Source: Octopus vulgaris
Taxonomy: Eukaryota
NCBI GenBank assembly: GCA_951406725.2
Contig: OX597814.1
Location: forward strand, 1,860,001 to 1,924,000
DNA length: 64,000 bases
Direction of reading: 5' to 3'
Shown here piece by piece: positions 3,345 through 3,682 of the stretch. Positions within the stretch are counted from its first letter, which is position 1. Every line of letters starts with the position of its first letter. Made by a program: the position numbers and the translations under genes. The notes beneath the pieces are model-generated. The model ran no database searches, was not told the DNA's origin, and saw only the letters and a program-made list of their open reading frames with translations.

Positions 3345-3682
3345 TAGGGATGGTATTATTAAAATACTATCACAAGTGGTAGCGAATTATTAGCCATACA
3401 GGCAAATTAATAAAACATATACATAAAATATTAGATATGTACGTATATACACAAGGGTAGTACATGATAGAAGTCGAAAAATACTTCTGTACCACCGAAT
3501 AGTCACAAATACTATTACAGACAAGATAGGAAAAAATATCAGTGAGCAATAATAATAATGTCTTGCCTCAAATGGGTCAGAACAAGTAAATGCTGGTCAA
3601 CATGGTACCGGTTTCGAAATTTAGCGCCACCTAGGCGCGTGATTTCTCATCAGCCAAGTGTGCCAGCTAAATAACTACCAAC
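3345..3682 (-). mobile_element. Short hammerhead-bearing element (Penelope pLTR/retrozyme-like), bounded by (TA)n on both sides
   Basis: About 340 bp of complex sequence between two (TA)n tracts, containing the HHR at 3592-3667. Confidence 0.6.
3592..3667 (-). ncRNA. Type I hammerhead ribozyme, canonical core
   Basis: Minus strand: GCUGGCACACUUGG-CUGAUGA-GAAAUcacGCGCCuagguGGCGCuaaAUUUC-GAAA-CCG-GUA^CCAUGUUGACCAGC. Stem I is UGG/CCA plus GCUGG/CCAGC. Stem II is GAAAU/AUUUC plus GCGCC/GGCGC. Stem III is the palindrome ACCGGU. Predicted cut lies between 3606 and 3605. Confidence 0.9.

Follow-up and report, generated by a model that had tools for sequence, protein, structure and literature searches.

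The locus and its hammerhead motif

On the minus strand of the window, by which we mean the whole 64-kb stretch of Octopus vulgaris DNA analysed here, positions 3592–3667 hold a type I hammerhead motif, recognised by pattern and by folding and with cleavage predicted only. It lies within a 5'-truncated single copy of a hammerhead repeat (3340–3685, minus strand), delimited by genome-wide comparison of copies, and this copy sits between two (TA)n runs that presumably represent its target, one at the 3' end of the element (3276–3346) and one at its truncated 5' end (3683–3799). Across the shared (TA)n run, and pointing away from this copy, lies another hammerhead repeat (3800–4205, plus strand), which belongs to an unrelated and younger family. 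This family also forms inverted arms, and the best 40 of its 2841 first-look candidates are 95–97% identical. The hammerhead of this neighbour (3912–3998) has an intact core at 3931, a 5-bp stem III, a two-part stem II and U1.7. At ~6730–7160 on the minus strand we recognised by eye the 3' repeat of a Penelope-like element (PLE) family with a GIY-YIG-like domain and a long-stem-II hammerhead; the core of this copy reads CCGAUGA, while an intact CUGA(U/C)GA pattern is found in 19 of 30 loci of the family. More hammerhead-like cores, of the short PLE type, are located at 61576 (plus), 7429 (minus) and 10461 (plus), the latter two being alike and having an extra base after A9. The window also contains a 522-aa open frame (24821–26389, minus strand) that resembles a LINE reverse transcriptase, and a 280-aa frame (54597–55439, minus strand) that resembles a mariner transposase.

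Read on the minus strand, the motif begins with the 5' strand of stem I (3667–3654), made up of a distal GCUGG (3667–3663), a linker and a proximal ACUUGG (3659–3654), so that the sequence between the distal GCUGG and the core (3662–3654) is CACACUUGG. The catalytic core from C3 to A9, CUGAUGA, follows at 3653–3647 with C3 at 3653, and leads into a two-part stem II (3646–3616), in which a proximal 5-bp helix, GAAAU/AUUUC (3646–3642/3620–3616), is separated by a 3x3 internal loop, CAC/UAA, from a distal 5-bp helix, GCGCC/GGCGC, closed by the 5-nt terminal loop UAGGU. G12, A13 and A14 occupy 3615–3613 and the palindromic ACCGGU 3612–3607. We read stem III as a single base pair (A15.1-U16.1) with a CCGG tetraloop, because a second pair would leave a loop of only 2 nt. 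A17 is at 3606, and the cut is predicted between 3606 and 3605, after GUA, in agreement with the position given in the initial annotation. Beyond the predicted cut, the 3' strand of stem I (3605–3592) starts with CCAUGUUGA (3605–3597), has U1.7 at 3599 and ends with the distal CCAGC (3596–3592).

All the conserved core nucleotides are indeed present, as the initial annotation had stated, and so is the G10.1-C11.1 pair; its two-part stem II is likewise seen. Its account of stem I needs some adjustment: the distal GCUGG/CCAGC helix stands, while the proximal part, described there as 3 bp, is on the family register better described as a six-position helix that contains a single U.U mismatch and precedes U1.7. 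The stem is imperfect, as had been noted, but its short imperfect form is in part the result of decay from a family helix of 6–7 bp.

A strict type I descriptor matches the 64-kb window twice, at this hammerhead and at 3931, compared with a mean of 0.015 matches in 200 first-order shuffles of the window, three of which had one match. The hammerhead stretch folds with a z-score of -2.86, and none of 200 shuffles folded equally well. Rfam called no hammerhead in the whole window at the gathering threshold, and none was among its 44 matches at E<=10 in 3000–4200; both hammerheads with a two-part stem II, 3592–3667 and 3912–3998, are thus missed. With the core CUGANGA, GAAA, UH, three helices and an open helix I all in place, the minus strand of 3592–3667 is, as judged from its sequence, confirmed as a real, ordinary type I hammerhead.

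The repeat family and its ribozyme

The dispersed mobile repeat that carries the ribozyme had escaped the initial annotation. In longer copies the end of the unit runs directly into its start, and these copies define a unit of 444–447 bp with 35% GC and one ribozyme; in two tandem loci the ribozymes are spaced 444 and 447 nt apart. The window copy corresponds to unit positions ~85–446 of ~446, lacking the first 84 nt and holding one ribozyme. There is no frame of 120 aa within it and the unit is ORF-less, an ATG within the core opening a frame that closes after nine codons; by eye, we saw neither an LTR nor a primer-binding site or polypurine tract. A terminal 9-bp inverted repeat (3349–3371, minus strand), seen in the sequence, lies a little inward of the main fixed 3' end; it has one mismatch in the window copy, and its family form has 290 exact occurrences.

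Searching the 2.8-Gb genome with 3340–3685 gave 56 matches from 40 scored of 837 candidates. Exact matches numbered 125 for a ribozyme 21-mer, 290 for a 3'-end 21-mer and 105 for a pattern joining the core halves and the palindrome, with no matches for the reversed-pattern controls, and by one exact 21-mer the family has at least 290 copies. The window copy differs by 3.8% from the majority of 57 copies (family median 4.8%, mean pairwise divergence 9.9%), a level of copy divergence indicating that the family is not very young. Its ribozyme shows four differences from the majority, all in stem I and shared by 17, 4, 7 and 3 of the 57 copies, and of the seven stem I pairs of the family it forms five, whereas all seven are present in 23 of 32 aligned copies and six in a further 7. 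The copy is not special, and mildly decayed. Calling it the best intact hammerhead is difficult to uphold, as proximal stem I has more pairs in 30 of the 31 other aligned copies, the core is preserved in 27 of 32 copies chosen independently of the ribozyme, and the neighbour at 3931 combines an intact core with a 5-bp stem III.

Only two examined loci, L090 and L094/L095, are tandems with two whole ribozymes, which makes this arrangement rare among the loci seen; as a solo, the window copy falls outside what Li et al. (10.64898/2026.07.22.740005) call active. Contigs from four presumed-RNA runs, which may include DNA, cover parts of the unit, with the ribozyme region in three; they show no joints or end piles, and contigs of this kind cannot show strand, ends or circles. 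At one insertion end (L143:885-1010), a ~50–75-bp terminal hairpin segment of the unit is present as three tandem repeats. The giant squid genome has been reported to hold 235 Rfam hammerhead loci (PMC6962438). In the part of the literature on octopus hammerheads and cephalopod Penelope elements that was covered, the present family is not described, the supplements from 2014, 2020 and 2026 being places that may hold such motifs.

The conservation of the ribozyme was assessed in 32 copies picked by unit positions 1–84, a part of the unit other than the ribozyme. Of these, 27 have an intact core and 29 an intact ACCGGU. None of the 51 shared-variant columns among the 446 falls in the 11-nt core, which alone gives p=0.26. 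Core changes number 5 of 352 as against 579 of 10293 elsewhere (p=2e-4), or 5 of 352 as against 279 of 8471 when the shared-variant columns are left out (p=0.06). An older subfamily, 70–79% identical to L002, was reached through a non-ribozyme query at 25 loci, 17 of which continued downstream, 10 of these being at least 12% diverged. Compared with L002, the majority sequence of these has changes at 16 of 115 downstream positions and at none of the 11 in the core; the free N7 is changed, and both partners of the fifth stem II pair are missing, leaving the canonical 4 bp. Covariation is weak: 95% of cells are paired in the 32 young copies and three pairs show double changes, but 63 of 500 shuffles score as high, and most of the covariation measures lie within the shuffle range. 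The stem I C-G versus U-A association gives p=0.08. We conclude that selection probably acted on the family ribozyme in source lineages, individual copies being left to decay. We also considered A-to-I editing fixed in copies, which is not supported, as A>G and T>C changes occur at 11 and 7 shared sites (p=0.09) and rare variants are symmetric.

In the single-molecule minimum free energy (MFE) fold, the C3-U4-G5 region pairs with the palindrome and the core is closed, the core-open fold being 2.6 kcal/mol less stable. For two linked copies the double hammerhead is the MFE, at -57.8 kcal/mol, two monomers with open cores reaching -51.2 kcal/mol; this MFE state holds for the window copy and for two others. 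Both natural tandems are decayed, and there the double-hammerhead fold lies 7–10 kcal/mol above the MFE. Metazoan hammerheads canonically have a helix I of 6 bp, a helix II of 4 bp and a helix III of 1–2 bp, the latter with a palindromic loop, a form of helix III that impedes monomer cleavage (PMC4209133), and an axolotl motif with 1 bp and a palindromic tetraloop reached 6% monomer cleavage in an hour, its dimer cleaving far better (PMC7229834). Judged by these models and precedents, together with the single pair closed by CCGG, the dependence on dimers that had been deduced from ACCGGU is well supported. Taking a lack of cleavage product, as monomer or tandem dimer, to refute the hammerhead would be too strong, because protein was needed for an Anolis PLE hammerhead to cleave (PMC11167929) and no product was obtained from eight of nine retrozyme dimers of Xenopus (Li, Clavereau and Pollet, 10.64898/2026.07.22.740005), so that a blank would be ambiguous.

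With only one ribozyme, the window copy has no partner in cis and cannot release unit-length RNA. Since its stem III needs a partner, efficient cutting would have to come from two transcripts paired in trans, and on the modelled folds the copy is likely inert unless such pairing occurs. It is likely a dead end, having a single ribozyme, no first 84 nt, a U.U mismatch in stem I and a need for pairing in trans.

Insertion footprint and mode of spread

Insertion ends were mapped at 26 loci for which the ribozyme 21-mer was the sole criterion of choice, four duplicates having been dropped from 30 fetched. The main arm ends at unit positions 440–446 in 11 of them, at 368–380 in 7 and elsewhere in 8, the 5' ends vary, and 12 loci contain an inverted segment. 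In a larger set of 122 distinct arm ends, partly chosen by likeness to the window copy, 26 continue into the following unit; of the 96 that do not, 67 lie at the same two points, with a TA run directly after 49 of the 67. Back-to-back arms end at the two different points in 11 loci. Both fixed ends are TA-like, which blurs the end positions and may favour priming. PLEs are described as inserting preferentially at (TA)n, in the form of partial tandems accompanied by an inverted 5'-truncated copy and by a tail on one side (10.1101/2021.04.23.441226), and the tail of an Anolis PLE was traced in vitro to two internal reverse transcription start sites (PMC11167929). The family shows fixed 3' ends with a tail, 5' truncation, an inverted arm and a TA target, the tail being ~70 nt here as compared with 30–40 bp in the papers.

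We consider it quite probable that the hammerhead belongs to a truncated, single-ribozyme copy of an animal non-LTR retrozyme family, for whose insertion into TA microsatellites a PLE likely supplied the reverse transcriptase and endonuclease. A type I hammerhead is found in each unit of a few hundred bp, tandems with at least two whole ribozymes exist at the level of the family, and the unit has no coding capacity and a low GC content; the ORF with reverse transcriptase and GIY-YIG between pseudo-LTRs (pLTRs) that marks an autonomous PLE was not found in the loci covered. The best reading of the family is as a non-autonomous PLE passenger, because its circularly permuted partial tandems, inverted arms, two fixed 3' ends and TA flanks match the PLE footprint, and by analogy we infer PLE-mediated target-primed reverse transcription in trans. 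Tandem source loci would be transcribed into multimers, in which pairing via ACCGGU would join two neighbouring hammerheads as a double hammerhead. Its cleavage after GUA would free monomers of ~446 nt, some perhaps becoming circular. The (TA)n target would be nicked by a PLE protein, and reverse transcription would start at one of two internal sites ~70 nt apart, cross the unit junction and stop at variable points.

PLEs with GIY-YIG-like domains are abundant in the genome. A PLE ORF (reverse transcriptase and GIY-YIG) adjoining the unit was seen neither in 82 loci nor in 9 further stretches, and the one GIY-YIG-like PLE family compared shares no sequence with the unit (30 loci, and a model search of 40 loci). 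What led to this PLE family was a fragment next to L061 that resembles GIY-YIG (Pfam GIY-YIG at E=0.0067, short of the cut-off); the family was rejected as the partner, as it has its own, unrelated hammerhead and no shared sequence. An odd piece upstream of the unit in L010 was likewise rejected as a link to a partner ORF: it belongs to a different TA-targeted repeat that had no link to the unit in 18 of 20 loci, the remaining two being L010's own place. At L010:1266-1500, ~125 bp of this other repeat (800 candidates; it also forms inverted arms) lies between the inverted and main arms, and the junction is likely a template switch between two PLE passengers.

The alternative that survives best, though we regard it as unlikely, is that the repeat is a pseudo-LTR that has become detached from an autonomous PLE, itself rare or extinct, the copies being ordinary 5'-truncated insertions of that PLE. 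Truncation anchored at the 3' end would indeed look alike, and in the other PLE family seen here the long-stem-II hammerhead stands ~300 nt behind the ORF in 19 of 30 loci. Type I hammerheads also occur in PLE pLTRs (PMC4209133), from which retrozymes are reported to derive (10.64898/2026.07.22.740005). However, what precedes unit position 1 is the unit's own end and not an ORF, in 30 loci and in the older subfamily too, the sole odd upstream piece being the L010 junction with a different repeat family, and the frame opened by the ATG in the core closes after nine codons.

Much less probable still is that the host has retained the window copy, which would work within one of its transcripts as a cis-regulatory ribozyme. 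Domesticated hammerheads are known from vertebrates (PMC6155905), and the MFE fold of the complete 346-nt copy includes the ribozyme stems. The intact core would fit as well, but it is the norm of the family (27 of 32), the divergence of 3.8% is typical, stem I, with five of seven pairs, is among the weakest, and stem III needs a partner. A chance resemblance to the hammerhead pattern, which the Rfam result might favour, is exceedingly improbable given 0.015 expected matches per window and a core that is identical between subfamilies 14% apart.

Returning to the retrozyme reading, the family closely resembles the metazoan non-LTR retrozymes (PMC7229834; 10.64898/2026.07.22.740005), including the mussel repeats of 350–390 bp, in being a repeat some hundreds of bp long, low in GC and devoid of ORFs, with a type I hammerhead, found as dispersed monomers and in tandem forms and co-occurring with PLEs. 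The 446-bp unit is above the 170–400 nt of the RNAs described (PMC7229834) and within the 51–972 bp reported in the later work (10.64898/2026.07.22.740005). In contrast to these systems, the octopus family has mostly partial tandems instead of long arrays, has the two-part stem II, and is described here from genomic sequence. With the pseudo-LTRs of endonuclease-positive (EN+) PLEs (PMC4209133, PMC8557442, PMC11167929) it shares partial tandems, an inverted truncated arm, a one-sided tail, two reverse transcription starts, TA-rich targets and a palindromic stem III, but it differs from them in having no ORF, a long stem I that is canonical and not minimal, and a tail of ~70 nt; no sequence link to the unit was found in the one PLE family compared. 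The probable retrozyme family is new in relation to the literature covered; this kind of element is already known. The single locus matters little, being one decayed copy among hundreds, while the family provides a further genomic case of animal retrozymes with a Penelope insertion footprint, a link that has been proposed in the literature mainly from co-occurrence and pLTR homology. Its natural dimer loci, with two ribozymes each at G000:C14:28311991-28312729 and C6:118635610-118636710, could serve to test dimer-dependent cleavage.

The two-part stem II

Apart from its two-part stem II, which is somewhat unusual, the element is of a known kind. Canonical, extended type I hammerheads have a 6-bp helix I, U1.7 and a 4-bp helix II, with conserved contacts made by a terminal loop 2. 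The family has a helix I of 6–7 bp, U1.7 in 53 of 57 copies and a helix II of 4–5 bp, whereas its loop 2 is internal and capped by another helix. Across the 32 copies the proximal helix is paired in 99% of cells and the distal one, the loosest part, in 88%. The initial annotation treated a contact between stem I and loop II as established; the contact best documented joins U1.7 to the final A of a tetraloop at the tip of stem II (PMC11875169), and as loop 2 is internal here, the tertiary geometry can only be inferred. With U1.7 present, a contact of this kind is nevertheless plausible from the sequence. Additional non-terminal stem II loops can inhibit trans-acting designs (PMC11875169).

We consider the occurrence of a two-part stem II in two unrelated families the most interesting residue of this work. 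The family and its neighbour at 3912–3998 share a 6-bp helix I, U1.7, a 4–5-bp helix II, an internal loop ending in AA and a distal hairpin. Contacts from a loop to bulge 2 may have a precedent in viroids. Confirmation of that precedent was not found in our literature searches or in passages of PMC3185496, and the literature covered, which is partial and whose supplements from 2014, 2020 and 2026 may hold such motifs, contained no description of an extended stem II of this architecture. Somewhat tentatively, and against the odds as we see them, retrozymes of this lineage might use a type I subtype in which an internal loop 2 with an extra hairpin docks on U1.7 of stem I, internal loop to internal loop. 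If this is true, a large class of animal hammerheads would be undercounted, the two-part stem II being missed by the standard Rfam models.

Axolotl HHR_Amex1 and newt satellite 2 (PMC7229834) have the same 1-bp stem III with a palindromic tetraloop, and by analogy poor monomer and efficient dimer cleavage would be expected here, but their loop 2 is terminal with conserved loop 1-loop 2 contacts, in contrast to the internal loop and further hairpin of the octopus family. The HDV-like type III hammerheads of toad and termite (PMC7936874) have a similarly interrupted helix with an extra hairpin cap, an internal loop being proposed for the contact there; in those RNAs, however, the helix is helix I of a type III hammerhead and the contact a Watson-Crick pseudoknot, whereas here it is helix II of type I. 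Lastly, one copy (L145 / L162, G000:C2:38524904-38524961) has 11 extra bases that lengthen the distal stem II hairpin while its core is intact, which suggests that this hairpin may tolerate a change in length.
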